DNA from: Candidatus Enterousia sp.
GTDB lineage: Bacteria > Pseudomonadota > Alphaproteobacteria > Rs-D84
Assembly (NCBI GenBank): GCA_045613785.1
Contig: JAZLBQ010000001.1
Coordinates: 2,571-66,570, forward strand
DNA: 64,000 nt
Direction of reading: 5' to 3'
In this document: in pieces, positions 1,560-35,360 of the stretch
Layout of the letters: each line of letters opens with the position of its first letter
Numbering within the stretch: position 1 is the first letter of the stretch
Notes under the pieces: generated by a model
Seen by the model: only the letters and a program-made list of their open reading frames with translations
What the model was told of the DNA's origin: nothing
Database searches by the model: none
Translations under genes and position numbers: made by a program

Positions 1560-1629
1560 ATGTGTTTTTTTATCTGGACAGGTAAAATAATCTTGTGCTA
1601 AGATTTATTTGTATATAGAGAGAATAGAT

Positions 1630-4600: not shown

Positions 4601-5337
4601 ATGTTGTGTATAAGTCTGGTAATTGGTCTTTTGGTGGACGTGTCTTTTCAGGTGCAATCACAGATGAGGGGCTGTTAGAAAATGATCCGACAATTTCTGC
4701 CCAGTATATGCCTGCAAAGTTAGGATTGATGAACGGTGGACAGTCAACAATTGCATGGGAAAATGAAAAATTCAGTTTTGCAGGTAATTTTGGTGCTGCT
4801 TATGAAACAAATACATTGTTGGGGGCATGGACAGATGGACTGTTGAATTTGGGAAATGGTCAGACAATGTATGTGGATTTTGTTGGACAGTATAATTTTG
4901 CTGATATGGCTGAATTGACAGCACGAGCAACTTTTGCACAGACGATGTCTGATGTTGCCGGTGATTTTGTTTTGGGTATGTCTGATGTTTATTCAAATGC
5001 ATTTGCATTGGGGGTAAATTTTGGTGCCTTTGAATTTGCTGTGTCTCAGCCGTTGGCTATTACACGTGGGAATTTACAATATGCGTATGCTGACTATGAT
5101 GTTGTAGAAGTGGATAAAAACAAATATGAATTAAAGGTTGTTGATGCGTATGTTGCAGATTTAGATCTGCGGCCTGAAAAACGTGAAGTCCGTTTTGCAG
5201 GAACGTATCGTCATAATTTTGGTCAATTTACAGATGCTGCGTTTGGATTTATTTATAGGGTGAATCCAAATAATACAGATGATTTTGGAGATGAATCAAT
5301 ATTTATGATGAAGTTATCACATCGCTTGGGAATATAA
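1630..5337 (+). CDS. autotransporter-like outer-membrane protein: ankyrin repeats + degenerate subtilase (S8)-like domain + C-terminal beta-barrel
   Basis: The ATG at 1630 gives signal peptide MKFIRFLAFSLFFAPFAASAA; the track start at 1609 is TTG. An ankyrin-like segment reads LLAAAKAADIQQVQSLVNAGADINFVDSTG..NNDVRAAQILQMYGADASKCD. The region GPTAEMATAAAAGAVASLKGAFDYMSNPQI..FGYGLINLERAMTP is homologous to the Ser-motif region of the S8 protein at 51467..53332 but lacks the Ser. The last ~350 aa have an alternating beta-strand pattern. Confidence 0.7.
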   Translation: MKFIRFLAFSLFFAPFAASAASSDFMMAAQLLAAAKAADIQQVQSLVNAGADINFVDSTGVSIVCTALMNNDVRAAQILQMYGADASKCDRQIKQFNNRNKPRASGGLFSGLSSVQGITLAAAGAAVVVGGLLLLTDVFDPGNDNDAASSDGNRPDNNPDDNTDQSAVAYLSVPYSPAYLGLDGKITTSDETYRANLTLWDPTAGSALRQADFNYFRPQVQAENNYVIDGLYLPMQNYLLMMHGYSAFANEYMGQGIFRDTATRNPILVGNSATGGRPVIAGLVTDNGVSPVGALDRSGGIVYAISAAADSATYLVDKFTNFNNPTSDGLGTEIVGFDFSGNGTAMNLFADSYDNALGKIVAGWEAGGRTDGDLIGFVPNGRLGIFRTGGGKYWQDLVSPLEGEVLGTVVNGDGADENAIDVGDTITFGGKTYLISLAVADSTIVNPTITINGTTYKLPSNSTLLKGVCSSSVEGECDDVSDIAIYLGDDGAYYVNTTGTNSVDNVLMVNGGNIYAKKELVDADYKNFQALYNARTVSDVLANVSVIDAARGNDYLTIADVPGLFDLTSASKEEVFAALINSAYDKNNSDINSQGMYAHRMFNNYTAGSPILLMPAGEFQWTGGAAKYATFENYAPLLYDGNLEHMFMTIVAVQHTGGTAGAGSIAGYGNGTGDSYGPLRLSVWQDYNGTLEDASDDIVYMSRKCGVAGVGLNGIDPWCFAAAGPTAEMATAAAAGAVASLKGAFDYMSNPQIFILMALTADGYLLGTDSTGGVFTKDALVGYLKNMYSLPSEYYEDTLTGDAYLQAFADVFGYGLINLERAMTPNKKIYFFDGTNIVSAGGNAYWRAAQNTVFRPSSVLNIRGATIRAPFFDVLESVDGSMSLPRVWENEFAFGTNDKRGLYMGDVLGELKTRRDTEQRTQVGALGVSMRFSERAYVDNLNGLDNLNLDFQSGKWNFAASYQRYLTDGASRFDGTANPVLGLVSNAVVSDVVYKSGNWSFGGRVFSGAITDEGLLENDPTISAQYMPAKLGLMNGGQSTIAWENEKFSFAGNFGAAYETNTLLGAWTDGLLNLGNGQTMYVDFVGQYNFADMAELTARATFAQTMSDVAGDFVLGMSDVYSNAFALGVNFGAFEFAVSQPLAITRGNLQYAYADYDVVEVDKNKYELKVVDAYVADLDLRPEKREVRFAGTYRHNFGQFTDAAFGFIYRVNPNNTDDFGDESIFMMKLSHRLGI

Positions 5338-9344: not shown

Positions 9345-9414
9345 CCGTATATATTCTGTGTTTATTTTATCAAAAATATGTGCTGATAACAAGCAAAATG
9401 AAATTGTTTTATTA

Positions 9415-9446
9415 AAATAAAAAACCGCCTTTTGGCGGCGTTTTTT
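9415..9446 (-). terminator. rho-independent terminator of infA
   Basis: Minus-strand hairpin CGCCGCC-AAAA-GGCGG followed by a T run. It overlaps the infA stop codon. Confidence 0.8.
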
Positions 9447-9693
9447 ATTGGTTTGTTGTTTCCCCCGTAGGACGATTGCGTTCAACGAATGTTATGCGTC
9501 CTTTGTCCAGGTCGTATGGGGTCATTTCAACACGAACACGTTCGCCAACGTTTACCCAAATGCGAGCCTTACGCATTTTGCCGCATACGGTCGCCAAAAT
9601 TTCATGTCCGTTTTCTAGTTTTACACGGAACATTGTGTTAGGTAATTTGTCTTCGACTGTGCCAGTGAAAACGATTACATCATCTTTTGCCAT
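9445..9693 (-). CDS. infA: translation initiation factor IF-1
   Basis: 82 aa, with [57 protein letters not shown]. This is the canonical IF-1 S1-fold sequence. Confidence 0.95.
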
Positions 9694-17779: not shown

Positions 17780-18859
17780 TTAGTCTATTTTGACAGGAAC
17801 TATCGTTTGCTTCTTGGCTGTGTCCAGTGAGTGATATTGGAACGGAACAGATGCAAAATTTATCTCTTTCATGTCCAGACTGCGGACTGTGCGATTATAC
17901 ATCGTATGATAGTATATAACCATATCTTTTAGGTCTGTGGCAACAGTCCACTGGGTGGCCGAAGGCATATTGTTTGGGGCAGTACCTACTGCAAACTGAA
18001 CGCCCAGGGGAACGTCAAAGTTGTTCAGGATATGAAAGGCCTGTTGAATTGTGTCGTATGCATTATCTTGCTGTAAAGAGTAGGTTTTTAAGAATGCTGC
18101 ACGGACAAAGCGTGATGGTGGTGTAAAGTCGCCTGGCAAGCCCAAGAATCCAGAACCAGAACCGAATGAACGCAGTTTAATTGGACCGAACTCGGTTGGG
18201 CCAGCACCACCAGGATGCAGGTTTACATAGTTGTTCAGGTTCGTTAGTTGCCATTGGAATCCTGGGGAATTGGTCAGGACGCCGACTTCGTTTTCGTAAA
18301 AGTTTGGAATGCCATTTACAATTTCCAAGACAACTTGGCGACCATTGGGTTCGGTTATTCGCCAATGGACCGTGCCGGCATTTGGATCAACGTTTATGAT
18401 ACGGACATCATTGATGGCTGCTTTGACTTGGTCGATTGTGGCAAAGCGTGATAATATCCAAGATACAACCTGGAAATCAGCCAAGGATATGTCTTTGTTG
18501 GCTTCGTTATATGGTTCGTAACTGCCGTAGTTTGGAAAGTAAAACAGGGCGGCAGACAGACCGGCTTCGTTTGTGCCGTCGATTATAAATTCAGGCTGTT
18601 CGGTTGCGATGCCGGCATATCCATAGAGTGATGTAAATGACAGGCCGTTCATTGTGCCGTCTGGCAGTAATGATTGGGCAGCATGCCCACGTGGAACAAT
18701 GACATACATATTGTTGTTTTCAGAACCTGACCAGTCCATTGTTCGGGCAACAACAGTTGTGTTGTCTAGTGATTTTAATGTGATGCCTGTGCAGGCGTTT
18801 GATGATTGAATCAGTGCAAGGCACATGGTTAGTGTGGATAAAAATAGTAAATGTTTCAT
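17780..18859 (-). CDS. choloylglycine hydrolase family protein (bile-salt hydrolase / penicillin V acylase-like Ntn hydrolase), secreted
   Basis: Signal peptide ending ..IQSSNA, followed by the nucleophile Cys (CTGITLKS..VVARTMDW). The length and motifs are typical of linear amide C-N hydrolases. Confidence 0.85.
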   Translation of the reverse strand: MKHLLFLSTLTMCLALIQSSNACTGITLKSLDNTTVVARTMDWSGSENNNMYVIVPRGHAAQSLLPDGTMNGLSFTSLYGYAGIATEQPEFIIDGTNEAGLSAALFYFPNYGSYEPYNEANKDISLADFQVVSWILSRFATIDQVKAAINDVRIINVDPNAGTVHWRITEPNGRQVVLEIVNGIPNFYENEVGVLTNSPGFQWQLTNLNNYVNLHPGGAGPTEFGPIKLRSFGSGSGFLGLPGDFTPPSRFVRAAFLKTYSLQQDNAYDTIQQAFHILNNFDVPLGVQFAVGTAPNNMPSATQWTVATDLKDMVIYYHTMYNRTVRSLDMKEINFASVPFQYHSLDTAKKQTIVPVKID

Positions 18860-19783: not shown

Positions 19784-22700
19784 TTATTTTCGCATAAATT
19801 CAAAATATTTAGGATCTTCTTTAAATACCTGAACATCAAATATGCCTGTTCGCATTAGCGTTTTGGCGACATCTTCATAACCTTCCTTTTCTGTATTAAG
19901 CAAGAAGCTTACCGATTTATTTTGATCAAGCAAATCGGCCGCTAGGCTATTCACATTGGCATAGGAAGAAAATTTCCCAGTTACTCTGTCATATGGCACT
20001 GCACCCTGTCTTTGGACAGCAAGCATTAAAGCCTCTCCAACGTCAGTATAGTCTTCATAAGAATTCACCACAGATGCAACGTCCCCGATCCTATACGCAG
20101 TCTGTTCTGCTGGCGTTGCACGATACGCATCATCTGATGCACCATACAAGTCTTTAGTGGCATCATATAACTGTGCCCCTAATGCATTTGCGTTTGGGTT
20201 AAGTTCATCAATTGCATGTCCGCCATTTTCATGTGCCAAGGTATTTATAAAACGTTCATAATTTTGTTGCTCATCAAAATCTATGCGGGTTTTGTTTGTC
20301 TTGGGGTAATATGCTCCGACAGTATTATCTGTGAATTTGTGAGCTTCTATAGTCGGTGCACGGTGGCGTGGAATTCCGTTCATTTCAAGCAATTTATTAG
20401 AAATTTCTTGGGCAAATATCGTTTTTTGATCTGTTGTTAGGCTGTACCAATTTTGCTTCATTGATTTTAGCCATTCGTCAGATTCAATTATATCGTGTAT
20501 TTGGTCCGCACGTAATAATGCAATTTCATCTAGTCGTTCTATTTGAACAGTATTTCCCACATCAAGTAAAACTTTGTCTGTGGTTAATTTTCTGATTCGT
20601 TCAGATCCTGCTCTTTTTGCTTTTTTGGCTTCATCGGCTGTTGTTTCCCCTTTTTCAACTAGCTTGTTTTGATAGTCTTCTACCTGTGAATATCTGGCTT
20701 TATATTCATCTATATGCTCTTGCGCGGTTCTTTTTATTTGTCGTACATCACGATTAAATGTAGAATAATTACCGGTAAAACCGTGATTTAGGACATGTTC
20801 ATAACTGATCATTTTGGAGCGTAAAACTTCTATTTTTGGATATTGTCTGGCAAATTCTGTTGGGTTGTCTAGATATAAATCAAATACTTCATCGGGGGCA
20901 GTCCGCCAAAAATCATCCAATTCTTTTTTTACTTGGGGCAAATTTGTTCTTGCTTCATTCATTATTGCTTTCATGCTTTCATCATTCAATGGGGCATCCC
21001 AAGAAACCCAATTCTTTGACATTTGTTGCATCTTTGATAAATCATTGTCTGCCATCGCTTTGAAATCATCCAACGACTGGTTGCGTGGGGCGTATTTTCT
21101 GTGAAGTTCACGCCAAACCGCTTCAACATCATCCAAATTGTCGGTGGCACGCATTTGTGGAATTTTACGTTTTAATATCAGCCAGTTGCCAGTAAGGCTA
21201 TCTTTTTGAGCCCGTTCTACAATATCTATTATGGCGTCGAATTTCTGTTTTATTGCGGCGGTACTTTTGGCTATGCGACTGGATTTTGAAATCGCCCATT
21301 TGGTAATACCGGTTATCACCGATGCCAATTGCAGGCCAATACCAACCGCACGCCATACCTGTTCCGGTTCCCAAGATTCCCAGAACCCTGCTTTGTTATC
21401 CGCCATGTCGGTACCATTTACCAACATGGTTGCCCAGATTTCGTCATCGTCTGGTATCAGGTTTGCCAGGCGGGCCAGTTCACTGTCAACTGCGTCCGCC
21501 TCGGCATCGGTCATGTCATTTTGGACATTTGCCATGCGTTGCAAGTTTTCGGCCAGCATTTTCTTGGCACACGTTGCGTTTTTACATTTATTACTTTCCA
21601 CCAAGAAATTGTCTGCAATGCCGTTTATTTTTAGTTGACTGGTTATTTCAATACCGGCACCAACGGTTTCAATGGCGGTAAATGCAATTGCAGACTTGGT
21701 CGCTGTGGCCGTGCCAGCAACAGCGGCGGTGGCGGTCCCGACGGTCGCAACAGTGATAACAATCCCAACAATTGCACCACCAACAATCATTGTAATGTTT
21801 ATACCCCTTTGCAGGTTTTGTGCAGATGCAGATGATGGCAATACGCAACTTTGTGTTTTATCGTCCCATTTTGCAGCCTTGCATTCTGGACATTCTTTCA
21901 GGTTTGATTTTCGCAAGACTTCGCATTGTTGTTCGCCCAAGCCGATACAACGTTTGCCGCTGTATGTGCCGCCTGTGACGATACAGGACATTCCCTGAAC
22001 ACCACCGGCAACAGTCTTTTTCCATTTTTCATTTATATCATTAAAAACAAAGTCTATTTGATTGTCACCAACACGACATGTTTTTATGTCGTCTTTGAAA
22101 TCGGTTATGCCATTTCTTGCACAGCCCGTGCCGGTATATGTATTAAACCCAGAATCACATTTGACCGATGATTCCGATACACCCGCACGTTCGGCAACAT
22201 ATTGTTTCAGATATGTTTCAACATTGGGCGCATTTGTAACCTGAATGCCGTGACAGAATACAAAGTTATCAATGCCGTATGCTGTTTTTAGGTCTTTTTG
22301 TTTGGTGACTGTATTAAAGTTTATTTCGCATTTTCCATTTTTATATTCTGCTATATACCCAAATTTGGCCATGGATTGGTTTATTTTTGCACATTTTGCA
22401 CTGTCTGCCGCACAGGATGCAGACCAACATGTGGCGGTGCCACTGACATTTGTGCCGCCGCCCGCACAGCCGGCCGTGGTTGGTTTTGCATCATACATAC
22501 GACAGATTGCGTTTTGAATGCTGTTCTTTATGATTTGGTCTTTTGGTTCTTCTAAATCGTCAAACACGAATTCATAGTATGCGTTTTGGTTATGTGATGT
22601 GCACATTAACGTGTAGTCTAAGGTGCCTTTATCAAAGTTGCCTTTGCATTGTCCTGTTGTGTCGTTGTGTTTTAATCGTGCGTATTCCTTGGCTAATGTT

Positions 22701-23110
22701 TGGCCTGGGGTCAAATTGACCTGGGTTCCGCCATAGATTTTGTTTGTAAAGAAATCATCAACGCATATATAGCCGGCTTTGCCTTTGTATTGTTTGTCGC
22801 ATGCGTGATAAAATTTTATATTTGCTTTTTTAACCAGCGTATTTACAAATTTTTGACATTGTGATTTGCCGTCCGATTTTTTGATGTCCCAGCCAGCAAT
22901 TGCACAAATATTCCATAATTTTTGGGCGGATATACCAGTGCCATTGGATTGCTTTATTTGATTGTTATATTCGCTGATTACAGAAAATTGTTTTTCGGCT
23001 GGCACGAATTCTTTTACAACAGATTCCACCGTAGATGGATTTATGTGAATGTTTGCCAAACATGGTGTAATAAAAAACAGCGATAATAATGTCAGGGCTA
23101 TTTTTTTCAT
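19784..23110 (-). CDS. large membrane-spanning protein: Cys-rich ectodomain, Gly/Ala/Thr-rich TM region, ~500-aa C-terminal domain (hypothetical)
   Basis: The ATG at 23110 overlaps the upstream stop (ATGA) and gives signal peptide MKKIALTLLSLFFITPCLA. About 430 aa with >30 Cys come first. Next is ITMIVGGAIVGIVITVATVGTATAAVAGTA and a second hydrophobic segment. The long charged C-terminal domain contains the HENGGH motif. Confidence 0.75.
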   Translation of the reverse strand: MKKIALTLLSLFFITPCLANIHINPSTVESVVKEFVPAEKQFSVISEYNNQIKQSNGTGISAQKLWNICAIAGWDIKKSDGKSQCQKFVNTLVKKANIKFYHACDKQYKGKAGYICVDDFFTNKIYGGTQVNLTPGQTLAKEYARLKHNDTTGQCKGNFDKGTLDYTLMCTSHNQNAYYEFVFDDLEEPKDQIIKNSIQNAICRMYDAKPTTAGCAGGGTNVSGTATCWSASCAADSAKCAKINQSMAKFGYIAEYKNGKCEINFNTVTKQKDLKTAYGIDNFVFCHGIQVTNAPNVETYLKQYVAERAGVSESSVKCDSGFNTYTGTGCARNGITDFKDDIKTCRVGDNQIDFVFNDINEKWKKTVAGGVQGMSCIVTGGTYSGKRCIGLGEQQCEVLRKSNLKECPECKAAKWDDKTQSCVLPSSASAQNLQRGINITMIVGGAIVGIVITVATVGTATAAVAGTATATKSAIAFTAIETVGAGIEITSQLKINGIADNFLVESNKCKNATCAKKMLAENLQRMANVQNDMTDAEADAVDSELARLANLIPDDDEIWATMLVNGTDMADNKAGFWESWEPEQVWRAVGIGLQLASVITGITKWAISKSSRIAKSTAAIKQKFDAIIDIVERAQKDSLTGNWLILKRKIPQMRATDNLDDVEAVWRELHRKYAPRNQSLDDFKAMADNDLSKMQQMSKNWVSWDAPLNDESMKAIMNEARTNLPQVKKELDDFWRTAPDEVFDLYLDNPTEFARQYPKIEVLRSKMISYEHVLNHGFTGNYSTFNRDVRQIKRTAQEHIDEYKARYSQVEDYQNKLVEKGETTADEAKKAKRAGSERIRKLTTDKVLLDVGNTVQIERLDEIALLRADQIHDIIESDEWLKSMKQNWYSLTTDQKTIFAQEISNKLLEMNGIPRHRAPTIEAHKFTDNTVGAYYPKTNKTRIDFDEQQNYERFINTLAHENGGHAIDELNPNANALGAQLYDATKDLYGASDDAYRATPAEQTAYRIGDVASVVNSYEDYTDVGEALMLAVQRQGAVPYDRVTGKFSSYANVNSLAADLLDQNKSVSFLLNTEKEGYEDVAKTLMRTGIFDVQVFKEDPKYFEFMRK

Positions 23111-24039
23111 TTCAATACCCCCGTACATTTTTCGGCAACCGTTGCTACTTTTTTGATTGCACTGATTTGCGTTGCATTGAACACAGTTGCCATGGCGGAT
23201 GCCGCCGTTGTCCCAATTGCCAATGTGTTTGCCGCAGTATTTAGATTTTTTTCTTTTTGCTTGCCAGATTCTGTATTATCGTTGCGTGTTTTGTCTGTGT
23301 TTGCGGTGGCGGATATGATTGTTCCGGTCAGCCCAGTTGCGGCACCAACGGTAGATGATATCATTGCACCCTTGGCACGATTGTTGATTTTTGATATGTC
23401 AACATACTCGTATTCGCCACAGGCTGTGGCAATAGATTGTGCCTCAGTAATATCCTCGCCATTTATTCGTGCCTGTATTATGGATTTTTGCAAGGTTTTG
23501 ACACTGCTGATACAGTTATTGATTTGTGTTTGCAGGTCAGCATCTACTTTGTTCGTGCCGGCAATAATTGCACCGGCCACATTGGTTGCTGTGCTACCCG
23601 CCATTAAACCAGTACGCCAGTTGCCCAGTTTTTTGGATTGTTTGGTTAATTTATCTAACTCGGCCTGTGCGCCATCTATATCTTTGATTGCAATGTCATA
23701 GGATTGTTCAAACTCCGTCAGAAACGCCTGTTGTTCGGCATCGGTGGGATAGATTGCGTTTTTCTCTAATTATTCCAGCTCTTTGATAAGTTTTTCTAAT
23801 TCTTCGGCTTGATTGTCTTTGGATTGTTTTACGAACCCCGTGACCGTTGCACCAATGCCGGCCGCCGTTCCAACAGATGTAATTGCGGTGTTTATGCCGG
23901 CCATTGTTTTCAACTCACTCAATTCATCATCAATTCCCACACATGTAGCGTATGTGGCACGTAACGCATCATCCAACGGCAATATATTTGCCGATGCCAC
24001 AAATGGGAAAATTATAAAAAACAAGGTAATATATCGCAT
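23107..24039 (-). pseudogene. secreted Gly/Ala/Thr-rich repeat protein interrupted by a single in-frame TAA (23770..23772)
   Basis: Track ORFs 23770..24087 and 23107..23604 are in the same frame (483 nt apart). The 165 nt between them have no further stop and no ATG/GTG/TTG until 23604. The ATG at 24039 gives signal peptide MRYITLFFIIFPFVASA. Four similar G/A/T-rich hydrophobic modules span both halves. Confidence 0.55.
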
Positions 24040-24505: not shown

Positions 24506-24650
24506 AGATTCTATTGTCCCCTTTTTGGGGGCGTTTTTTTATTAGATAGGGATAGGAATAAAAGAATAATTTTATTGATTATTTATTCTGATGTGCTATG
24601 AATTGTTTATCTGTAATTTTCAGAAATTTGTTTTTAGAAAAGGAGAGCTC

Positions 24651-27600
24651 ATGTCCAATACAAAACATTTGGCGGATTTTTTGAAAGTCTGCAGTTTATT
24701 GCCAGCATTGGCGATTATGCCTGCAATGGCGGAAACTGAGATTATTGAAGAACGATTGAATTTGACGGCTGATAAAATTTATCAAACAGATGTTTTGGCG
24801 GATGGGGTAGTTGGTTCGCAAGGTGGCGTTTTCTATGTCGGTAAGGATGTTGGACTGGTCTTTCAAGATGACGCGACGTTTAAAAATAATGTTGCACAGG
24901 GAAAAAATGTCCATGGTGGGGCAATCTATAATGAAGGTCGGGTTGATTTCGCAGATGATGCAACTTTTTCTGGCAACAAGACTTATTCTGGCGGTGGTGC
25001 AATTAGAAACTTGGCATCAGGATTGATGACTTTTAATGGTGATGCAGAATTTGATGGAAATTTGGTTCTGTATTCCAAAGACAATAGCGTTGGTGGCAGT
25101 GGAGCTGCAATAAATAATAACGGTAAAATCGTTTTTAATGGTGAAGCAACTTTTAAAAATAACAGTGCCTTAGATAGAAAAGATAGCTATTCACAGGGTG
25201 GGGCGATTTACAATGGTGGTGAATTAGTATTTAACGGCACTGCAAAATTTACAGGAAATGCTAGTTATAACAAAGGTAGTGTAATAGAAAATACTGCTGC
25301 TGGTAAAATAACTTTTAATAAGGGCCTTGTTGTAAATGGTAATGGAACAGATTTAAAAGGAAATTCTTCGAACGGTATAAATAATTCAGGAACCATGAAT
25401 ATCTCTGGTGGTGATGTAATTATTACAAACAATAATACTGGCGGAATTGCTGGGATTTCAACTGGTGCTGTGTTGAATATTGATGCAGGTGATTCCGGTA
25501 AGATTTTATTTGAAAATAATACAACACGGGATTCTATTGTTGGGTTGTATTCTTCAGGCAGTGAAACAACATTGTTAGCTGATTTAATCTCGTTTAAAAA
25601 TAATGTTCAGACAAGTAATACTGCCAAGGTTTATGGTGGTGCAGTTTATAATGGTGGGTCTGGTTCAGATCAGGGTGTGCTGAAACTGTTGGCGAAAAAT
25701 ATTGTCTTTGAAGGAAATACTTTGAACGGTTTCCAGGACGGGCATAAAAAAATTGGCGGTGCAGCACTGTATAATCGTGGTGGTGGCGATTCTGCTAGTG
25801 TGACAGAAACATTTGTTGGTTTGGCAGACGGAACAAGCACGATCTTGTTCAAAAACAATTCTTCGGCACAGCATGGAGGGGCGATTTTTGGGCGAACAGA
25901 TGACGGAACTGGTTTTGATGCACAGTTGACTTTGACTGGTAATGTTGAATTTTCTGGAAATAGTGCCGGTGAAAACGGTGGTGCTATTATGAACTGGACC
26001 GATGGTCGTGGTGGATTGACTGATATCAATATTGTTGGAAATGTTTCTTTTGAAAATAATATCGCTGGTAAAAGTGGAGGGGCTATTTTCAATAGCGGAA
26101 CAGTTGATTTAAGCAAAGCTGTTGCTGAATTTGAAGGAAATATCGCCAAAGGTAATTATGGTGGGGCAATTTATAATGCCGCTTCTGGTAAGTTCGTAAA
26201 TTTGACAGCAGAGTTTGAAGAGAACAAGGTTCAAAATGATGATTTCGCTGCCGGTGGTGCAATTGCAAATATTGGAAAGATTGCTGAACTGACTGGGGAA
26301 TTTGAAGAAAATTCTGTTCTTGCAACAACTGATAATGTTATAACATCCGCAAAAGGTGGTGCGATTTATACGTTTGCTGGTTCAACAATTGACTCAATCG
26401 TTGCTGACTTTGATGGTAATTTTGCTATCAGTGGTGGTGAAGCAATGGGTGGTGCAATCGTTAATGATGGTAAAATCGGAAAACTGCATCAGTTAAAAGA
26501 TGGTTTTGTAAATAATAAGGTTGATGCCAAGGTTTATGCCTGGGCAGGTGCGTTGTATAACAGTCAAGGGGCAACAATTGATGAATTAAAGGCGGACTTT
26601 ACTGCTAATTCTGTTAAAGGGGCATTGTGGTCCGTTGGTGGTGCGGTATTGAATTATGGCACTGTTGGCACATTGACTGGTAATTTTACAAATAATTCTG
26701 TAGTGGCAACTGAACAAGATGGGTCAGCATTGGGGGGGGCAATATTGAACTTTGATACTATCCAGGCATTGAGTGGTAATTTCATTGGAAATACAGCGTC
26801 AGCTGCAACAGCAGAGTATGCAATGGGGGGGGCAATTGAAAACTATTCCGGGACAATCAATGTCGTTGGGGATAATTTGTTCCACAAGAATATGGCTGAT
26901 TATGGTGGGGCAATTGACAACAATGATGTGCTGAATTTGACAGGTAAAAACGTATTTACTGGCAACAAGGCAAATTATGATGGTGGGGCAATTTATAATG
27001 CTGGCACGTTGAATTTGGCTGGGGAAATCATCTTCGCTGATAACGTTCATGGAAAATATAATGCTGCCAATGACATCGTAAATGAAGGTGCTTTGAATAT
27101 TACAGCAGGAACAACAACCTTTGGTGGTGGTGTCAAGGGAACTGGTGATTTGGTATTGGCCGAAGGGGCAATATTAAATATTGGCACAACTACAATTCAT
27201 CAGGGGACTATCAATTTACAGGGAACTGTTATCGCTTCGCTGGTAAATAATCAGCGTGGAAATGGATATGGTCGTTTCGTTGGTGATATCACAGTCGGGG
27301 CAAATGCAATGTTTGAATTGAACGTTGGTGCCGTTGGAACATATAATATCTGGGATGGTAATGTGATTAGTAAAGATCAGATTATTGTCGGTGATATATA
27401 TGAAATTGCAAATATTGATACCAATGGTGTTCAAATTGTGACTAAATCTGTCGAAAAGGTTGCACAAGATGTTGGACTTTCAACCCAGGCGGCGGGTGCG
27501 GTTGTAAGTATGGCAAATTCAAATATTGGTAAATCGCATCAGATTTCTTTGGCGTTGCAAAATGCGTTGAACAGTGGCGATGCAGAATATGTCGAGGCAG

Positions 27601-28514
27601 AAACCAAGAAATTAAACCCAACAGATAAACCTGTTACCCAGGCGGCTGCGGCTTCAATGCAAAATCAGATTTTGTCGCTGGCATCAGGACGTATGTCTGG
27701 CGGAATGGCAATGGGACGTGCCGGTGGTGACGAGGCAACCCAGGAAAATGGTTTCTGGATTCAAGGATTGTTTAACAAGTCTAAGTTCGCAGATAAATTC
27801 CATGGATATACACGTGGTGTTGCACTGGGGGCAGATACATTGCTTGAAAAGACTTGGACATTGGGTGGCGGTTTGGCATTTAATAATTCTGATGTTCATG
27901 CTGATGGTTTACATACAAATATCGACAGCAGAACCGTGTTCTTGTATGGTCAGTATAAGCCGGGCAAATGGTTTGTAAATTCGACTTTGACATATAACAT
28001 GTCTGAATATACAGACGATAAAACTGTTGCTGCAATCAAGTTGTCAAATACATACGATGTCGATTCGTATGGTGCCCAGATTATGACTGGCTTCGATTTT
28101 GCAACAGGTATCACGACCGAGGCTGGATTGCGTTATCTGCATATTGCACAGGAAGGCTATACAGATGAATTGGGTAATCCTGTTAGTGAAATGGACAACA
28201 GTTTCTTGTCTGGTGTTGCGGGCGTAAAGTATGCGTTTGAAATTGAAAACGATTGGTCCATTCAGTTGCGTCCAGAATTGCGTGCTGCAATGACATACGA
28301 TTTTGTCAGTGATGATGCGGTTGCAACGGTTGTCTTGCCGGGGGTTGCATCATACGAGGTTGCGACAGATCGTTTGAGTCGTTTGGGTGGTGAATTCGGT
28401 ATCGGATTGACTGCACTATATAAAGGTATGGAAATTTCCGTGATGTATGATTTAGATTTACACCAAGATTATACATCTCAGACGGGTATGATAAAGTTCC
28501 GTGGAAAGTTCTGA
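24651..28514 (+). CDS. autotransporter with polymorphic-membrane-protein (Pmp-type GGAI / FxxN) repeats
   Basis: The ATG at 24651 follows AAAGGAG and gives a signal peptide ..LLPALAIMPAMA. There are more than 20 GGAI[YFV]N / FxxN repeat units. The C-terminal ~280 aa are an autotransporter beta-domain ending ..MIKFRGKF. Confidence 0.85.
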   Translation: MSNTKHLADFLKVCSLLPALAIMPAMAETEIIEERLNLTADKIYQTDVLADGVVGSQGGVFYVGKDVGLVFQDDATFKNNVAQGKNVHGGAIYNEGRVDFADDATFSGNKTYSGGGAIRNLASGLMTFNGDAEFDGNLVLYSKDNSVGGSGAAINNNGKIVFNGEATFKNNSALDRKDSYSQGGAIYNGGELVFNGTAKFTGNASYNKGSVIENTAAGKITFNKGLVVNGNGTDLKGNSSNGINNSGTMNISGGDVIITNNNTGGIAGISTGAVLNIDAGDSGKILFENNTTRDSIVGLYSSGSETTLLADLISFKNNVQTSNTAKVYGGAVYNGGSGSDQGVLKLLAKNIVFEGNTLNGFQDGHKKIGGAALYNRGGGDSASVTETFVGLADGTSTILFKNNSSAQHGGAIFGRTDDGTGFDAQLTLTGNVEFSGNSAGENGGAIMNWTDGRGGLTDINIVGNVSFENNIAGKSGGAIFNSGTVDLSKAVAEFEGNIAKGNYGGAIYNAASGKFVNLTAEFEENKVQNDDFAAGGAIANIGKIAELTGEFEENSVLATTDNVITSAKGGAIYTFAGSTIDSIVADFDGNFAISGGEAMGGAIVNDGKIGKLHQLKDGFVNNKVDAKVYAWAGALYNSQGATIDELKADFTANSVKGALWSVGGAVLNYGTVGTLTGNFTNNSVVATEQDGSALGGAILNFDTIQALSGNFIGNTASAATAEYAMGGAIENYSGTINVVGDNLFHKNMADYGGAIDNNDVLNLTGKNVFTGNKANYDGGAIYNAGTLNLAGEIIFADNVHGKYNAANDIVNEGALNITAGTTTFGGGVKGTGDLVLAEGAILNIGTTTIHQGTINLQGTVIASLVNNQRGNGYGRFVGDITVGANAMFELNVGAVGTYNIWDGNVISKDQIIVGDIYEIANIDTNGVQIVTKSVEKVAQDVGLSTQAAGAVVSMANSNIGKSHQISLALQNALNSGDAEYVEAETKKLNPTDKPVTQAAAASMQNQILSLASGRMSGGMAMGRAGGDEATQENGFWIQGLFNKSKFADKFHGYTRGVALGADTLLEKTWTLGGGLAFNNSDVHADGLHTNIDSRTVFLYGQYKPGKWFVNSTLTYNMSEYTDDKTVAAIKLSNTYDVDSYGAQIMTGFDFATGITTEAGLRYLHIAQEGYTDELGNPVSEMDNSFLSGVAGVKYAFEIENDWSIQLRPELRAAMTYDFVSDDAVATVVLPGVASYEVATDRLSRLGGEFGIGLTALYKGMEISVMYDLDLHQDYTSQTGMIKFRGKF
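26732..26739 (+). repeat. G8 homopolymer inside the Pmp autotransporter CDS
   Basis: TGGGGGGGGC, encoding part of a GGAI repeat. Confidence 0.95.
26825..26832 (+). repeat. G8 homopolymer inside the Pmp autotransporter CDS
   Basis: ATGGGGGGGGC, a second tract 93 nt downstream of the first. Confidence 0.95.
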
Positions 28515-29585: not shown

Positions 29586-31277
29586 TTACTGATCGCAACC
29601 ATACTCACCGCATGTTCCAGCTGAATATTCCTGGACATCGATTTCAACAGGAACTGGACGTGGATTTTCGGTGTAATGTGTTTCTTTGACAACACGAACA
29701 CGGCGGTTGGCGGCGTTTGGTGTGTTGTCAGGTGTTGGAACAGCCAAGTCTTCTTCGCCGGCAGATACTGCAACAATCTGGCTGGCTGGGATTCCGTATT
29801 GAATCAACATTTTCTGAACAGCTTCGGCACGGCGACCACCCAATGCATAATTGTAGTTCGTTGTGCCGGTTGTGTCTGTGTGACCAACAACAGAAATCTT
29901 GATGTTTTTGTTTTCCTGGGTGGCAGCCACCAATTGTTTAATCAATTCTTGGTATTCTGGTTTGATGATTGCCTTGTTGAAATCAAAACGTATTTCAAAG
30001 ACTTCTTCCATGACGTGTTGAGTTGGTTCTAGTGGAATCTGTTGAACCTTTATCATTGTTTTTTCGCCCTGGGCAGCTTGAATTTGATCCAGACGTGAAT
30101 TGATGGCGGCTAATTCTGCACGCATTGCCATCATCATGTTGATGAATTCTTCACGTGTGACCAATTCGTCGCTTATCATCGGAATTGGTTCTGGGCATGC
30201 CTGACATTCTGGACATGTTGGACATTCTGCACAGGCTGGACATTTTTGCTCTTTTTCTGTTACCACAACTGCAAATGATGGAGATGCAGGACAGTCTTTC
30301 TGACCATGTTGGCAGTTATGTTCATGCTCATGTGTTGCAGGAGCGGGGCAATTTGTTGCACCACTTGGGCATTCACTTGCACTTAGTGTGTTGTTGCTGT
30401 TGCGGATGCTGTTGTCGTTTGCACTTTTTGTAATTGATTTGTCGCCACCGTAAATATTCTGGTTGAATACCATTGGCTGAACTGGTTCTGGTTTAATCAG
30501 GTGTTCAGGAACATTTACATTGTTTACGATAATCACACCTTCACGGTTCTGAGATGCATTACGCATTGCAGCGGTGTTGCGTGTGTCTGGATAGTATTTC
30601 CCAGCAGTGCGTTCAACAGCAGTTTCAACGGTTGTTTGGCCGTTTGTTTTGATTGTTTCAGTAATTTTTTCTTGCTGTTCTAATTTTACCTTTTGTGCCA
30701 AGCTTTGGACGACTTTGCCACCATGGCAATCACGCAAGGCGACCATCGTTTTGTTAAAGCGGTCACGGCACTGATTGGCGGTTGCAATTTGACCACTTGC
30801 TGATGCAGATAGCCAGCAATCAAATTTAGCTTGGGCTTCGGCAGCCAACTGTGGATTGGTGTATGACGCATCATTTTTCAACTGTTCCATCAGTTCATTG
30901 TATGCATTATATAATTCAAATGCTTCTTGTTCGTTTTCAACAGGCCAATTTTCCAAACTTTCTGGGAAAGGAACTTCGCCACTGAATGCGGCAATAGCCT
31001 TGTTGGCGAATAATTCACCCATGTCCGCATAGCCACTGGTGCGGGCATTATATATTGCATAAGAACGATAGTTCATCGCCAGCTGGTTTAGAAATGAATC
31101 CTTGTGTGGGGCAGAATATACGTCCAGCGATTCAACATAGTCAACCGTTGGAGTTGATATAGGACCTTCATAGTTCGCATCGCCACCAGTATTTGCACAC
31201 GCAGTCAATGCAACTGCACTAACGATTGTCAGTATGCGTGAAATAACCCATGTTGCCACACAAGATTTATTTTTCAT
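29586..31277 (-). CDS. OmpA-family peptidoglycan-binding lipoprotein with central Cys/His-rich insert
   Basis: Lipobox ..AVALTAC. The C-terminal OmpA domain reads FDFNKAIIKPEY..VVGHTDTTGTTNYNYALGGRRAEAV..NRRVRVV. The insert is CPSGATNCPAPATHEHEHNCQHGQKDCP..KCPACAECPTCPECQACPEP. Confidence 0.85.
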   Translation of the reverse strand: MKNKSCVATWVISRILTIVSAVALTACANTGGDANYEGPISTPTVDYVESLDVYSAPHKDSFLNQLAMNYRSYAIYNARTSGYADMGELFANKAIAAFSGEVPFPESLENWPVENEQEAFELYNAYNELMEQLKNDASYTNPQLAAEAQAKFDCWLSASASGQIATANQCRDRFNKTMVALRDCHGGKVVQSLAQKVKLEQQEKITETIKTNGQTTVETAVERTAGKYYPDTRNTAAMRNASQNREGVIIVNNVNVPEHLIKPEPVQPMVFNQNIYGGDKSITKSANDNSIRNSNNTLSASECPSGATNCPAPATHEHEHNCQHGQKDCPASPSFAVVVTEKEQKCPACAECPTCPECQACPEPIPMISDELVTREEFINMMMAMRAELAAINSRLDQIQAAQGEKTMIKVQQIPLEPTQHVMEEVFEIRFDFNKAIIKPEYQELIKQLVAATQENKNIKISVVGHTDTTGTTNYNYALGGRRAEAVQKMLIQYGIPASQIVAVSAGEEDLAVPTPDNTPNAANRRVRVVKETHYTENPRPVPVEIDVQEYSAGTCGEYGCDQ

Positions 31278-31339
31278 AATATTCCCTTCTTTCTTTAATC
31301 TTTATTATTATACGTTTTTTTAAGGGGTTAGTAAAGCAT

Positions 31340-31365
31340 AAAAAAAACGCCCGAAGGCGTTTTTT
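31340..31365 (-). terminator. rho-independent terminator
   Basis: Minus strand: ACGCC-TTCG-GGCGT followed by T7, right after the MotB-like stop. Confidence 0.85.
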
Positions 31366-32476
31366 ATCGATTTGTTAGCTGTAATTCGATTCGACGATTC
31401 TTTTGCAGTGCCTTTGCGTCATTGCCCAGTTCGACAGGATGCATGTCGCCAAAGCCACTTGGGACAAGGCGACGCTTGGATACGCCTGCGTTGGCAAGCT
31501 CGTTAGCAACGGCAGTTGCACGCAATAGCGACAATTCTGTGTTGTTTTTATATCCCGGTGTGCCTGCAATTACTTGCTTTTTATCGGTATGACCGTCAAC
31601 ACGGATAATCCAGTTTATGTCTGTTGGAATTTTTTCTTCCATGTCTTTGATTACATTTGCTATCAGGTGTAGTTGTTTTTTGCCTTCGGGTGACAATTTG
31701 TATGAGCCACTTGGGAATAAAATGTCACTGTTGACAATAAAACGGTCGCCATCAGTCTGAATTGTGGTGCGGTCGCCCAGTGCTAGTTTTATAGCCTTGT
31801 AGAAATCAGATTGATATTTTGAAACATCTTTTAGTTCGGCAACCTTGTCGGCCAGAGCCTTGTTTAGGCGGTTTGACATTTCAACGTATTGGATTTCTTG
31901 GTTCCTAGATTTTTCTTCGGCAGCATCTAAGGCAGCTTGCAGTTTTTCTAGTTGCTGGGCCAATTCGGCACGTTGAGCTTCCATTTCTTGTTGTAGCTGT
32001 CGGCGTTCTTGTTCCAATTGTGCCGTTTTTTCTTTGTCCAGGGTTGCCTGGTTTAATTGTTGGGTTAGTGCGGAAACCTGTTCCTGCATATTTAGGCCTT
32101 GGCTTTGTAAATCAAGTATTTTAACCTCGTATGCGGTAATAAGGTCAGAAATGCTGTCGTCTATCTGATTTAGTTCGTCAGTCAGAACGGCGTTGTTTTT
32201 TTCTAAAGTTTCCAGCTCGTTTCGTGCCAAAATCAGCAGGCGTTTTGCTTCTTGCTCGTCGGCCAGCATTTGCTGAATCGTTTGAGTTTGTTCAGCGTTT
32301 GTTGCCTTTAAATCGTCAAGTGATTTTGTGTTGCCAACCTTGTTGAATACACTGGTCGTAGTCCACAAAAAGACAAATACAATCATTAAAAATATCAGTA
32401 TAATTACAAGATTCGAAAATAAATCTACGAATCCTGGCCATGCATTTGTATGTGTGCGATAACGAATGTTCATCAT
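31364..32476 (-). CDS. MotB-like protein: N-terminal TM with conserved Asp, long coiled coil, OmpA/MotB peptidoglycan-binding domain
   Basis: WPGFVDLFSNLVIILIFLMIVF matches the MotB/ExbD-type plug-TM region. About 170 aa of heptad-rich sequence follow. C-terminal FPSGSYKLSPEGK..RVDGHTD..NTELSLLRATAVANEL..NRRIEL. Confidence 0.8.
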   Translation of the reverse strand: MMNIRYRTHTNAWPGFVDLFSNLVIILIFLMIVFVFLWTTTSVFNKVGNTKSLDDLKATNAEQTQTIQQMLADEQEAKRLLILARNELETLEKNNAVLTDELNQIDDSISDLITAYEVKILDLQSQGLNMQEQVSALTQQLNQATLDKEKTAQLEQERRQLQQEMEAQRAELAQQLEKLQAALDAAEEKSRNQEIQYVEMSNRLNKALADKVAELKDVSKYQSDFYKAIKLALGDRTTIQTDGDRFIVNSDILFPSGSYKLSPEGKKQLHLIANVIKDMEEKIPTDINWIIRVDGHTDKKQVIAGTPGYKNNTELSLLRATAVANELANAGVSKRRLVPSGFGDMHPVELGNDAKALQKNRRIELQLTNR

Positions 32477-32504
32477 TGGTGTTTCTCTCTCTTGTTTTGT
32501 TTTT

Positions 32505-33278
32505 TTATTTGTCTAAGACAGATTGCTCTAGATTTTGGACGGATTGTGTCAATTCCCGTGTGGCTAAATTGATTTTTGGTAAAATCTTGGCAACGTCATC
32601 GGATACGGCAACATGTGTGTGAGCTGCCAGATAATCTTCTAGTTCGTGATAGATTGTATTCTGGGCAGATTGAATTTGTAACCCAAGAAAACCAATTGTA
32701 AGGCTGCCCCCCAGACCAAGCAAAGAACTGGTAAATGCAGTCGCCATCCCAGCCAGTGGGCGGGTTAGTCCAGCCTGCATAGATGTTAAAACTGTTTCGT
32801 CTGAAAAGTTTAATCCACCAATCAGTTCAGCAAAACCACCAACTGTTAAAATCAAACCCCAGAATGTTCCAAGCAGACCTAAAAAAATCAAAGTGTTGGT
32901 TATATAACGGATGGATTCACGTGAATCTTCGAAACGCATCAATATCATATCCATAAAACCGTTTAATGTCGCAGCAGAAATGCGACGTGGACGAGATGCC
33001 AACATTGATGCGACAGGACGCAATAGATACGGTGGTAATGCCAAATTACGGCGACCAGTTGTGTAGCCGTGTAACCATTTATATTCGGGTAATAATTGGA
33101 ATATTTGCACAAAACAAAGACCAATTCCAAACAAGGTTGTGCCAATAATCACGCCGTTTAACCATATGTTGGCGATTGATATTTGTATGAATTCAGCCCA
33201 AAAATACATCACGCCCGCAAACAAAAATGCGGTAAACAATGTCATGCGATTTAGTGCACTGTGAAAATGTCTAGTCAT
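32505..33278 (-). CDS. MotA/TolQ/ExbB proton-channel family protein
   Basis: 257 aa with four predicted TM segments. Signature region IFLGLLGTFWGLILTVGG...LAGMATAFTSSLLGLGGSL. GAGGGG RBS. Confidence 0.8.
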   Translation of the reverse strand: MTRHFHSALNRMTLFTAFLFAGVMYFWAEFIQISIANIWLNGVIIGTTLFGIGLCFVQIFQLLPEYKWLHGYTTGRRNLALPPYLLRPVASMLASRPRRISAATLNGFMDMILMRFEDSRESIRYITNTLIFLGLLGTFWGLILTVGGFAELIGGLNFSDETVLTSMQAGLTRPLAGMATAFTSSLLGLGGSLTIGFLGLQIQSAQNTIYHELEDYLAAHTHVAVSDDVAKILPKINLATRELTQSVQNLEQSVLDK

Positions 33279-33351: not shown

Positions 33352-34344
33352 TTATATTTTATAAATTCTGATAAATGATATTTCGGATGTGCCAGTTGAA
33401 CCAGAACCACCGTCGCCACCATTTATGCCTTTTTTATAATTAGATGAAACGGATGCACCGCCACCACCACCACCGTATGTTGTTGCAGTTTGACCACCGC
33501 AGGAATATGAAACTGTTTTGCCACCACGGCCGCCGACTACTGATATCATATTTATCAAATCGTATTCTGTGTATGATGTTACATCGCCACCATTGCCCCC
33601 GGCGTCTGGAGTAGCGTCTTCGCCAGGATTTACAATTACACCTTCGACATTGTTGTTCTTGTTAAATTGCCATTTTGTGCCACCAATTCCTTCTGGTGCA
33701 CCGCCACCACCGCCGCCAATGGAATTTATATATTTGTTGCTGGTTGATGAATATGTACGAGAAAAAGAACGATAGCCGTTTATATGGCCTGCAAGATTTG
33801 TTGTGTTGCCACCAAATCCATTTCCGACTTTGACTGTGGTAGATGCTGGCACTTGATTTGTTGCAGAGCCAGAACTTGCAGAAATGCATGATTTGCCTGC
33901 ACCGCCAGGAGCACGCCATGTGTTGTTGCCTACAACTAGGATACAGTCAACGCCAGATGCACCGCCGCCAAATGAACCCTTGGACGAACCGCTGGTGATA
34001 ACTTGACCAGGGTTGCCGTCGCCACCACGTAATGCATAAACTGTGGTTGGTTCAGAAATTGAAAATAATGCTGATGTGTATGTCGTAAAGTCTGGTTCAA
34101 CATGGTCAAGGCATTCGGGGTTTGGTGCCCCAATGCCACCACTTAATTCTGCACGATAACAGCCAGGTTCTAGTAATATTTCATTACATGTGTTAAAATT
34201 TTCTGCGGTAAATACCAGTTCTTCGGTGCCTTCCATTACACATGCCCCTTGGGGTAATTCGTTAACAGTGTGATATTTTGCACCTGTTGGTGTGGAAAAG
34301 TATAGGGCAGGCGATAATAGTAAAGGTGCGATTATTGGTAGCAT
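33352..34344 (-). CDS. glycine-rich (polyglycine-II / ALK-type Gly-rich-domain-like) protein, copy 2
   Basis: Contains GCYRAELSGGIGA, VYALRGGDGNPG, FGGGASGVDCILVVG, SIGGGGGGAPEG, TTYGGGGGGAS and C-terminal GGDGGSGSTGTSEISFIRIYKI. No convincing Sec signal. The start codon lies 2 nt after the stop of copy 1. Confidence 0.75.
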   Translation of the reverse strand: MLPIIAPLLLSPALYFSTPTGAKYHTVNELPQGACVMEGTEELVFTAENFNTCNEILLEPGCYRAELSGGIGAPNPECLDHVEPDFTTYTSALFSISEPTTVYALRGGDGNPGQVITSGSSKGSFGGGASGVDCILVVGNNTWRAPGGAGKSCISASSGSATNQVPASTTVKVGNGFGGNTTNLAGHINGYRSFSRTYSSTSNKYINSIGGGGGGAPEGIGGTKWQFNKNNNVEGVIVNPGEDATPDAGGNGGDVTSYTEYDLINMISVVGGRGGKTVSYSCGGQTATTYGGGGGGASVSSNYKKGINGGDGGSGSTGTSEISFIRIYKI

Positions 34345-34346
34345 GA

Positions 34347-35360
34347 CTATCCTATCTTGTGAATTCTGACAAAGCTGGTTGATGACGTGCCTGTTGAACC
34401 AGAACCGCCATCGCCGCCGACTTCACATTCATTATTACACCAAGAACCACTGTTGTTGCAAGTAGATGTTATTTTTGTTGTGCAGGTAGCACCACCACCG
34501 CCACCGCCATAGGTTGTGGCGGTTGTTCCGCCACACGAATATGAAATAGTTGCACCGCCATTGCCGCCATGAGCAAAATTTAGTGTGTTGGAATTATTTT
34601 GCAGGTTTGTAACACTGCCACCATTGCCACCATGGGTTGAGGTTGCAAGTGTGCCAGCAGTATTAGATAATTTTGTCGTTGCTTCTGCACCATTTCCAGG
34701 CAGTCCAGTGTTGCTTGGGGTCGAACCTGCACCGCCACCACCGCAGACATAATTAGATTTAACTGTTCCATTTCCGCCGTTGTTGATGTATTTGTCTGTA
34801 TAAAAACCGCCACCACCACCGCCGCATAGTGCAGAGATTCCCTGGCCACCACCAGGATGGGCAGTAATTGAACCGTTCATACAGCGTGAACCAGGAGCGC
34901 CTGTCGCACGAATTACACGGTCTCCAATTACCAAAATACTGTCAACACCAGAAGCACCGCCACCTGATACTTGGTGGCTTGAAATGGTTGGTGCGTTGTT
35001 ACCATCGCCACCACGTAGGGCATAAATCGTTGTAGGACTGTTTGTTTTAAAGAACGAGGACACATAGTTGCCTGGAAAATGTTGCTTGCCAGTTCCAGCG
35101 TTGCAGCGAGAAGGCATTCCGCCAGCACCGCCTTGTAGTTCTACACGGTAAATTCCAGCAGGCAGTTCATAGGATATGCATGTGTTTATAGGGGCAACAT
35201 CAATGATGATGTTCTCGACAGCATCCATAATCTGACCGTCAACAGGAACAAGCATGACATAATAAATTTCCCCGTTGGATTGCTTTATGTGCAGGGCAGG
35301 CGAGGTCATTTGTTGTGTGTGTGCTACTATTTCTATATTATCCAGATGTAATACTGGCAT
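34347..35360 (-). CDS. glycine-rich (polyglycine-II / ALK-type Gly-rich-domain-like) protein, copy 1
   Basis: Contains GIYRVELQGGAGG, IYALRGGDGNN, SGGGASGVDSILVIG, CGGGGGGFY, TTYGGGGGGAT and C-terminal GGDGGSGSTGTSSTSFVRIHKIG. No signal peptide. Confidence 0.75.
   Translation of the reverse strand: MPVLHLDNIEIVAHTQQMTSPALHIKQSNGEIYYVMLVPVDGQIMDAVENIIIDVAPINTCISYELPAGIYRVELQGGAGGMPSRCNAGTGKQHFPGNYVSSFFKTNSPTTIYALRGGDGNNAPTISSHQVSGGGASGVDSILVIGDRVIRATGAPGSRCMNGSITAHPGGGQGISALCGGGGGGFYTDKYINNGGNGTVKSNYVCGGGGAGSTPSNTGLPGNGAEATTKLSNTAGTLATSTHGGNGGSVTNLQNNSNTLNFAHGGNGGATISYSCGGTTATTYGGGGGGATCTTKITSTCNNSGSWCNNECEVGGDGGSGSTGTSSTSFVRIHKIG

Follow-up and report, generated by a model that had tools for sequence, protein, structure and literature searches.

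The stretch analyzed here is a 64,000-nucleotide segment of Candidatus Enterousia sp. contig JAZLBQ010000001.1 (henceforth the window; all window coordinates count from its first letter). On its minus strand lie two adjacent paralogous genes, which we call A (the first open reading frame, ORF, of the pair) and B (the next ORF downstream). Each encoded protein is predicted to be a stand-alone TNF-like beta-sandwich fused to a rigid polyglycine-II-type lattice, and we are highly confident both of this fold and of the A-B pairing, which recurs in relatives. We hold with about even confidence that the two proteins, paralogous and co-expressed, are subunits of a disulfide-stabilized, phage-derived variable binding module at the cell surface. 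While the fold and its occurrence in uncharacterized bacterial and viral proteins were already known, the new elements are a cellular, stand-alone and obligately heterotypic A-B pair, the amplification of this pair with a hypervariable center in a small-genome gut lineage, and the absence of signal peptides from A and B whereas homologs have them.

Organization of the A-B gene pair

The initial annotation of this region, made from the sequence alone, had proposed tandem paralogous ORFs, and this was borne out on the minus strand. A and B match end to end (34% identity over ~337 residues, E 1e-20); because this BLASTP match was obtained despite compositional adjustment, glycine richness (Gly content ~19-20% in both) does not account for the paralogy. 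All of the ordered motifs quoted in that annotation are present in both translations (GxYRxELxGGxG, [IV]YALRGGDGN, GGGASGVDxILV[IV]G and SYSCGGxTATTYGGGGGGA), as is the nearly identical C-terminus, GGDGGSGSTGTS..F[IV]RI[YH]KI. Similarity between the 3' ends of the two genes at the nucleotide level, also proposed there, is real but only modest (74% identity over 66 nt, E 1e-7); it is explained by conservation of the protein and is not a sign of recent gene conversion. The first N-terminal hairpin and the four-cysteine insert of A are missing in B. We looked for a third copy of the family in the 64-kb window and found none. Features of the pair are as follows.

34347..35360, minus strand: gene A (A-type), 337 aa; N-terminal beta module of ~55 residues, then predicted TNF-like sandwich and glycine-rich lattice
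33352..34344, minus strand: gene B (B-type), 330 aa; core as in A, starting with a short uncharged hydrophobic stretch
35393..35421, minus strand: promoter-like site of the A-B unit, sigma-70-like; TTGCCC, 17-nt spacer, TATAAT; the -10 is extended by a TG upstream
35364..35370, minus strand: Shine-Dalgarno-like AGAGGGA of A, 3 nt before its ATG, read from the sequence
35196..35360, minus strand: N-terminal module of A, residues 1-55; contains two 'P-x-L-H' strands; predicted local distance difference test score (pLDDT) of the model 58-72
34641..34880, minus strand: hypervariable central region of A (residues ~161-240), loops between Gly-rich segments
34425..34484, minus strand: A-type-specific four-Cys insert (C293, C301, C308, C312), missing from B-type proteins
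34350..34353, minus strand: AGGA, putative ribosome-binding site of B, inside the last codons of A
33625..33894, minus strand: hypervariable central region of B (residues ~151-240), column entropy up to 2.4 bits
33304..33333, minus strand: unit boundary, a separate promoter-like site (TTGACA, 18-nt spacer, TATTCT) for a MotA/ExbB-like ORF at 32505..33278

The promoter-like site ahead of A is putative; with 10/12 consensus matches, it was the top site of the region in a consensus scan. A longer N-terminus of A is excluded by an in-frame TAG 12 nt upstream of its ATG. The stop of A is followed after just 2 nt by the ATG of B, a layout that suggests translational coupling of the two genes. No intrinsic terminator was detected at the unit boundary.

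Predicted fold and comparison with ALK/LTK

The glycine-rich domain of the receptors ALK and LTK was reportedly called a highly unusual fold in the structure work of 2021; its counterparts have since been recognized mainly in phage fibers. The initial annotation had likened A and B to this domain and had suggested structure prediction as a check. AlphaFold2 models built with 49-sequence alignments were confident for A (pLDDT 89.6, predicted template modeling score 0.80) as well as for B (89.0 and 0.84). From residue ~115 to the end, 65-68% of the two models is neither helix nor strand, with pLDDT mostly >90, as would be expected of an ordered glycine lattice. Segments with at least three Gly in five residues number 11 in A and 12 in B (the last two of B overlap), and GG runs number 16 and 15, respectively; in ALK, 14 polyglycine-II helices are packed as a lattice.

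Structure searches used the A model. The first 19 Foldseek matches in the PDB were all ALK/LTK extracellular domains, with probabilities of 0.87-1.0 (1.0 for the first 16). AlphaFold2 weights predate the ALK/LTK structures of 2021, and if this holds, the match is not a memorized template. As modeled, A and B appear to have the TNF-like beta-sandwich and glycine-rich lattice that define the fold of PF12810 (ALK_LTK_GRD). In a viral structure library, the A model had 42 matches at E <= 1e-3, which comprised phage Gly-rich, minor-tail, tail-fiber and virion proteins along with giant-virus collagen-like proteins.

The picture at the level of sequence profiles is different. The PF12810 search, which the initial annotation had also proposed, failed for both proteins: A scored 10.3 bits (E 0.67) against a gathering threshold of 24.5 bits, and B gave no match. 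Among the 49 family members only P0006, which is 54% identical to A, passed the cut-off (25.5 bits). Neither the family profile nor single sequences reached the ALK chains among PDB sequences, where the only match was a chance one to EspB (E 1.2), and searches of A and B against Pfam, NCBIfam, PADLOC and PHROGs returned nothing significant. The assignment of an ALK/LTK-type domain thus stands for the predicted fold; it does not stand at the Pfam level, and the nearest sequence relatives outside the family are distal domains of phage tail fibers.

The TG region of ALK/LTK (PF12810; PDB 7LRZ, 7NX1, 7LIR) has the architecture, TNF-like plus glycine-rich, predicted for A and B. However, ALK and LTK, which bind ALKAL cytokines, are metazoan receptor tyrosine kinases in which a signal peptide and an EGF-like domain are combined with a membrane span and a kinase, whereas A and B are bacterial, stand alone, contain no other Pfam domain and, by inspection, have no signal peptide. 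Bacillus exosporium BclA and C1q/TNF-like fiber heads have no glycine lattice, and their likeness to A and B is limited to the sandwich. Structural similarity to the three-layer polyglycine-II sandwich of T-even gp38-type adhesins (phage S16 gp38, PDB 6F45) was not found.

Homology to phage tail-fiber tips

Outside the family, the nearest sequence relatives of A and B are metagenomic phage tail-fiber proteins (P0176, P0179, P0181, P0184 and P0188), which were the weakest profile matches of the family search. The hhalign comparison of the family with phage fiber tips gave a probability of 98.9% (E 3e-17) over 105 columns, corresponding to A residues 55-159, and the motifs G-x-YR-x-E, GGDGN and GGGxSG are common to both groups. 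The C-terminus of the phage proteins carries the motif S-S-G-Y-x-R-I-Y-R, and the form shared with the family is S-x-S-[FY]-x-R-I-Y-[KR]; this conserved C-terminus, modeled as a beta-strand, is common to phage fibers. The N-terminal half of P0179 matches PHROG tail-fiber families (E 3.5e-46). Judged from these alignments, the A/B family appears to descend from, or to share ancestry with, phage tail-fiber tips: its TNF-like and Gly-rich domain is homologous to the tail-fiber C-terminal domain and consists of a conserved Gly-rich stem with hypervariable loops, as seen in column entropy, paralog comparison and pN/pS windows (see below).

The same two-domain tip is found in Pam3, where variable distal loops on a conserved Gly-rich stem recognize the host (PMC9608196). 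Pam3 gp24 is, however, a homotrimer with an alpha-helical baseplate-docking domain, encoded by the phage beside a dedicated chaperone, gp25, whereas A and B have no helical shaft and a chromosomal housekeeping setting, and the gene downstream of A is not a chaperone but the paralog B. Similarly, the five metagenomic phage proteins have long N-terminal fiber shafts, unlike A and B, and show no sign of pairing among them. Only ~55 (A) or ~40 (B) residues precede the sandwich, with no N-terminal shaft or baseplate-attachment domain, and no phage structural module or fiber chaperone surrounds the pair. Phage 'brush' domains are regarded as antireceptors (PMC13243795); the mycobacteriophage Bxb1 gp33 'tail wing brush' and gp29 spike subdomain (PDB 9D93) and siphophage polyglycine-rich brushes belong to virions, and no relation to A or B is detectable in their sequences (no PHROG match).

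This homology, together with the likeness to viral fiber structures, would also fit a different history, in which A and B are domesticated fiber-tip parts of a tailocin, a gene-transfer-agent-like or another phage-derived particle. They would fold in the cytoplasm and be released by lysis, which would explain why they lack signal peptides, and their genes would be sited apart from the main structural cluster; small fiber-like proteins with phage-fiber motifs that adjoin family members in relatives (described below) point the same way. We nevertheless regard such a particle as quite unlikely. There are no phage structural, lysis or integration genes near the pair, either in the window or at the relative loci examined, and the neighbors of the pair are ribosomal and other housekeeping genes. 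Several pairs dispersed in genomes that are mostly <1 Mb would be unusual for one particle, the fiber-like partners and several homologs carry Sec signal peptides, i.e., they use cellular export, and neither A nor B matches any PHROG family.

A small, lineage-restricted family of A-B pairs

Among 5.8 billion proteins, a word-indexed search brought up 161 relatives, which are nameless or annotated as 'hypothetical', the named ones coming from metagenome-assembled genomes (MAGs) of uncultured Alphaproteobacteria. When 1.84 billion cluster representatives were searched exhaustively with the profile, only 74 clusters reached E <= 1e-3. The family is small and restricted to Enterousia-type gut Alphaproteobacteria; its hosts in a genome scan were Candidatus Enterousia, uncultured gut Alphaproteobacteria (Hadza, SIG46) and 'Rickettsiales' UMGS1304. 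Genomes of the order Rs-D84 are mostly <1 Mb, lack flagella and most biosynthesis, and are predicted to depend on partner cells (PMC12306168).

The family alignment divides into two types. A-type proteins begin with 'MPxxH..' and contain the four-Cys insert; B-type proteins are shorter, have a hydrophobic N-terminus and lack the insert. At every locus whose contig permits a view, an A-type gene is directly followed by a B-type gene, with a gap of 5-11 nt in relatives, and start sites and gene order are conserved. What surrounds the pair varies, from positions after rplS, after a BOF-domain gene or after RNase E/G to one beside rpsF in the window, so that nothing but A plus B makes up the conserved unit. 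Some genomes have at least four or five pairs, each pair being two of ~800-1,200 genes. At least four A-type and at least three B-type proteins are apparently encoded on one 640,797-bp contig, and four family loci come from MAG SIG46.

In one relative, P0149 (448 aa), the family domain is represented by its N-terminal half (profile positions 1-242), and the C-terminal domain fused to it, ~200 residues with an 'NACGATS' motif, is unrelated.

Hypervariable centers and paired cysteines

Hypervariable stretches of A (residues ~87-100, 121-130, 161-240 and 291-310) alternate with conserved blocks of beta-strands and Gly motifs. Column entropy is 1.6-2.6 bits in the center of A and 0.4-0.6 bits in the conserved blocks. 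Paralogs from the same genome are 97-100% identical in their first and last 30 residues and 30-60% identical in the center; for the B paralogs of one relative genome, the values are 97% at the N-terminus and 30-37% in the center. The ratio of nonsynonymous to synonymous differences (pN/pS) is ~0.05 at the N-terminus and ~1 in the center, and pS itself is uneven along the gene, which suggests mosaic recombination. The N-terminal module of A is under strong purifying selection in paralogs of relatives. When A is compared with the A protein of a relative locus (L004), they are only 41% identical, whereas neighboring lineage-specific proteins are 67-76% identical.

Given this conservation, the notion that A and B are not real genes, i.e., that they are glycine-codon-rich low-complexity DNA that stayed open by chance, has practically no probability left. 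Compositional bias alone speaks for it, and it is already refuted by 161 homologs in which motifs other than glycine are conserved and certain Cys, Arg, Asp, Tyr and Asn residues never vary, by pN well below pS at the termini, by confident models and by conserved gene order and start sites.

Four cysteines are invariant in the family (49 sequences). The remaining ones come and go in pairs (16/16, 13/13 and 27/30), the four-Cys block is complete in 33/33 A-type and 0/16 B-type proteins, and the total number of cysteines is even in 42 of the 49 proteins. Pairing of this kind is the usual signature of disulfides, from which we infer that the proteins probably reside in an oxidizing compartment.

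The conserved cysteines could instead bind metal in cytoplasmic proteins whose glycine lattice serves an intracellular role. A and B have no export signal, Gly-rich polyproline-II bundles are known in the cytoplasmic proteins Obg and acetophenone carboxylase (PMC12227593), and the block of A, C-x7-C-x6-C-x3-C, could be a metal site. We consider this unlikely: metal sites need three or four ligands while cysteines in the family change two at a time, homologs carry Sec signal peptides, hypervariable loops in combination with many paralogs typify proteins that face a partner or host, and the structural relatives are all extracellular binding domains.

Signal peptides and export

The initial annotation found no recognizable signal peptide in either protein. 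This is clear for A, which has no hydrophobic N-terminus (top 11-residue hydropathy 1.34). For B it needs qualification, as the opening 9-13 residues of B and of every B-type relative are uncharged and hydrophobic, with a hydropathy (1.8-2.5) like that of real signal-peptide cores. This stretch is probably not a cleavable signal peptide, because it runs into a conserved strand ('..ALYFKTxxG..Y') and has neither a basic n-region nor a conserved cleavage motif. The same N-terminal strand is also conserved in the mature part of signal-bearing relatives. Canonical Sec signal peptides are present in P0146, P0148 and P0189, directly before the module that opens A ('VLHLGG...TTSPAL'). RTX or type I secretion substrates were considered and rejected, as no Pfam match to the GGxGxDxUx nonapeptide repeats (HemolysinCabind) was obtained at E <= 1, and the conserved C-terminus, where such substrates carry their secretion signal, is the modeled beta-strand also seen in phage fibers.

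If the hydrophobic N-terminus of B were a non-canonical signal or a membrane anchor, A and B would be ordinary exported surface proteins, with A arriving at the envelope either attached to B or along a route specific to the lineage. The signal-like hydropathy of the B-type N-termini would permit this, the N-terminal segment of B is modeled at pLDDT <50, and in three related genomes a family member is the last gene of an array with TcpQ and a lipoprotein secretin, an example of what such a route could be. Yet the stretch is too short for a signal, shows the deficiencies listed above and overlaps a conserved strand, the Sec system carries no passenger proteins, and no secretin lies near the pair in the window; moreover, the three secretin loci share broad synteny, and the adjacency may be inherited rather than functional. 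On balance, we find this explanation improbable.

The arrays of the sister lineage (L018 4921..9005; L021 1315..8978; L023 2211..8975) run, in order, through TcpQ, the lipoprotein secretin, one to eight small genes and a signal-bearing protein of 127-135 aa to the family member, which is the last gene on the same strand. These family members have no signal peptide and start 1-15 nt after the gene for the 127-135-aa protein, which carries the phage-fiber motifs 'DWxxTD..AP[ND]YI[KL]NKP' and ends in 'VFIWFN'. The array could be a surface-fiber operon and a lead to the export route. In an Enterousia-type locus (L011), a related 111-aa protein is encoded 755 nt downstream of the B gene, and in another relative (L022 1..1949) a collagen-like (GXY) protein ending in '..GWVKVYIVP' lies directly upstream of the signal-bearing P0189. 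The fiber-like partner contexts of relatives suggest a stalk-plus-tip surface fiber; none of these contexts is present in the window.

A possible variable binding module

Many copies, conserved ends, a hypervariable center and paired cysteines together form a genomic pattern that points to a binding or recognition role. In the module that we propose, beta-strands and conserved Gly-rich segments would form a stiff, disulfide-stabilized scaffold, and the hypervariable loops between them would form the binding surface. Made together from one promoter with translational coupling, A and B would probably assemble into a hetero-oligomer, and the highly conserved N-terminal module, which may serve docking or oligomerization, could attach the assembly to a partner. 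Several pairs per genome, differing in their centers, would supply a repertoire of binding specificities or antigenic variants, and such a repertoire would suit a partner-dependent gut bacterium with a small genome that has to attach to other cells or surfaces.

Several observations weigh against this proposal. The superposition on ALK covers only ~138 residues (~40%) of A, with global TM-scores of 0.26-0.30. A pN/pS of ~1 in the center fits relaxed constraint as well as it fits diversifying selection, and the paired-cysteine pattern is partly confounded by the split into A and B subfamilies. Sequence inspection and hydropathy revealed no recognizable Sec or Tat signal in A or B, and no conserved secretion genes adjoin the pair in the window or at the relative loci examined, so that a surface location would need an unrecognized export route. 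Besides, phage fiber proteins fold in the cytoplasm and have no signal peptides, and phage ancestry alone would explain why A and B have none. With no evident export signal or route, the arguments for and against an extracellular binding role of A and B are in our judgment nearly balanced.

A more far-reaching version is doubtful, namely that the A-B pairs are an undescribed cellular adhesin system in which a captured phage receptor-binding tip was duplicated to give a heterotypic A+B unit, was amplified into a set of variable pairs, is exported independently of Sec and mediates recognition of and attachment to partner cells, comparable to host recognition by a phage. In some lineages of such a system, DNA rearrangement may switch expression or content; whole pairs enclosed by inverted repeats, and one pair with a serine recombinase next to it, suggest this. 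If attachment to partner cells were confirmed, the family would make it concretely possible to study how partner-dependent bacteria locate their partners and stay attached to them, and would clearly exemplify the reuse of a phage receptor-binding module by a cell. Its members are also compact natural scaffolds (~330 aa) for the study of polyglycine-II lattices.

Rearrangement-associated elements near the pairs of relatives

Arrays of 8-nt AGTGAnnn units with inverted copies occur in 6/23 loci, always within a few hundred nt of the pair (for example, L004 7359..10030; L012 5107..8248; L015 1905..2659; L016 730..1502). The whole pair is enclosed by inverted repeats in L004 (42-nt arms) and L012 (127-nt arms). 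In L011 (5096..9075), a serine recombinase (8002..8604, minus strand) is located between the B gene and the 111-aa signal-bearing phage-fiber-like protein (8740..9075), and inverted repeats of 67 and 63 nt (5096-5223 and 5595-5715) flank a segment of ~370 nt that lies ~290 nt upstream of A. The recombinase and repeats of L011 could be a phase-variable switch; the window has none. An invertible-DNA switch was accordingly rejected for the window, where neither inverted repeats around the pair nor AGTGAnnn arrays were found, both of which are present in some relatives.

A diversity-generating retroelement (DGR) was also rejected as the source of variability. A genuine DGR is present ~6 kb from one pair in L007 (17471..20134), with a reverse transcriptase (RVT_1, 328 aa) and a 108-aa Avd-like ORF. 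Its template repeat (19080-19210) and variable repeat (19461-19591) are 86% identical, with mismatches almost all at template adenines, and the variable repeat lies at the 3' end of a 227-aa gene, not in A or B. A bAvd-like gene is found between rpsB and tsf in L022 (3236..3550).

Neighboring genes in the window

The window is ordinary chromosome that includes rpsF-rpsR-rplI and genes for TyrRS, a CcrM-like methylase, PGK and TIM, as well as rpsB-tsf. Three genes lie directly downstream of B (29586..33278, minus strand). The first encodes a MotA/ExbB-like protein of 257 aa whose match to ZorA is confined to the membrane part and stays far under cut-offs; the second, a 370-aa coiled-coil OmpA/MotB-like protein of the NCBIfam PRK09039 type (E 5e-74); and the third, a 563-aa OmpA lipoprotein with a Cys/Pro-rich 'CPxC' linker. 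Together these genes resemble a stator-like pair, in a lineage that reportedly has no flagella. An anti-phage Zorya system was rejected on account of the partial, sub-threshold ZorA match and the lack of ZorC or ZorD genes. A general link of the MotA/ExbB-like and OmpA/MotB-like genes to the A-B pair was rejected as well: they do not accompany the pair at five of the six relative loci examined (L001, L004, L007, L008 and L010). In a close relative, L016, the same two stator-like genes (70-75% identical) lie 2.4-4.3 kb from a B gene on the opposite strand.

Three paralogs with 27-29% mutual identity (6627..9485, minus strand; 9828..11981, plus strand; 12004..14508, plus strand) encode Cys-rich proteins of 717-952 aa with Sec signals and no Pfam match. 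Their orthologs (67-76% identical) are located 2-6 kb upstream of the pair in L004, and paralogs 2-4 kb from pairs in L011 and L014; proximity to A-B pairs thus recurs. Two further ORFs, of 1242 aa (1609..5337, plus strand) and 1114 aa (19784..23128, minus strand), have signal-like N-termini and no Pfam match, and the 1242-aa protein has a beta-barrel-like C-terminal region. Between rplI and tyrS (36952..38013, plus strand) is a gene for a 353-aa protein with a CxxxCxxC radical-SAM motif, which scored 24.8 bits against a Pfam cut-off of 29.5 bits. Finally, the window encodes a 1307-aa autotransporter with Chlamydia PMP repeats (24591..28514, plus strand) and an enzyme of the choloylglycine-hydrolase family, of the bile-salt-hydrolase type (17780..18859, minus strand), both of which fit an animal-gut organism.

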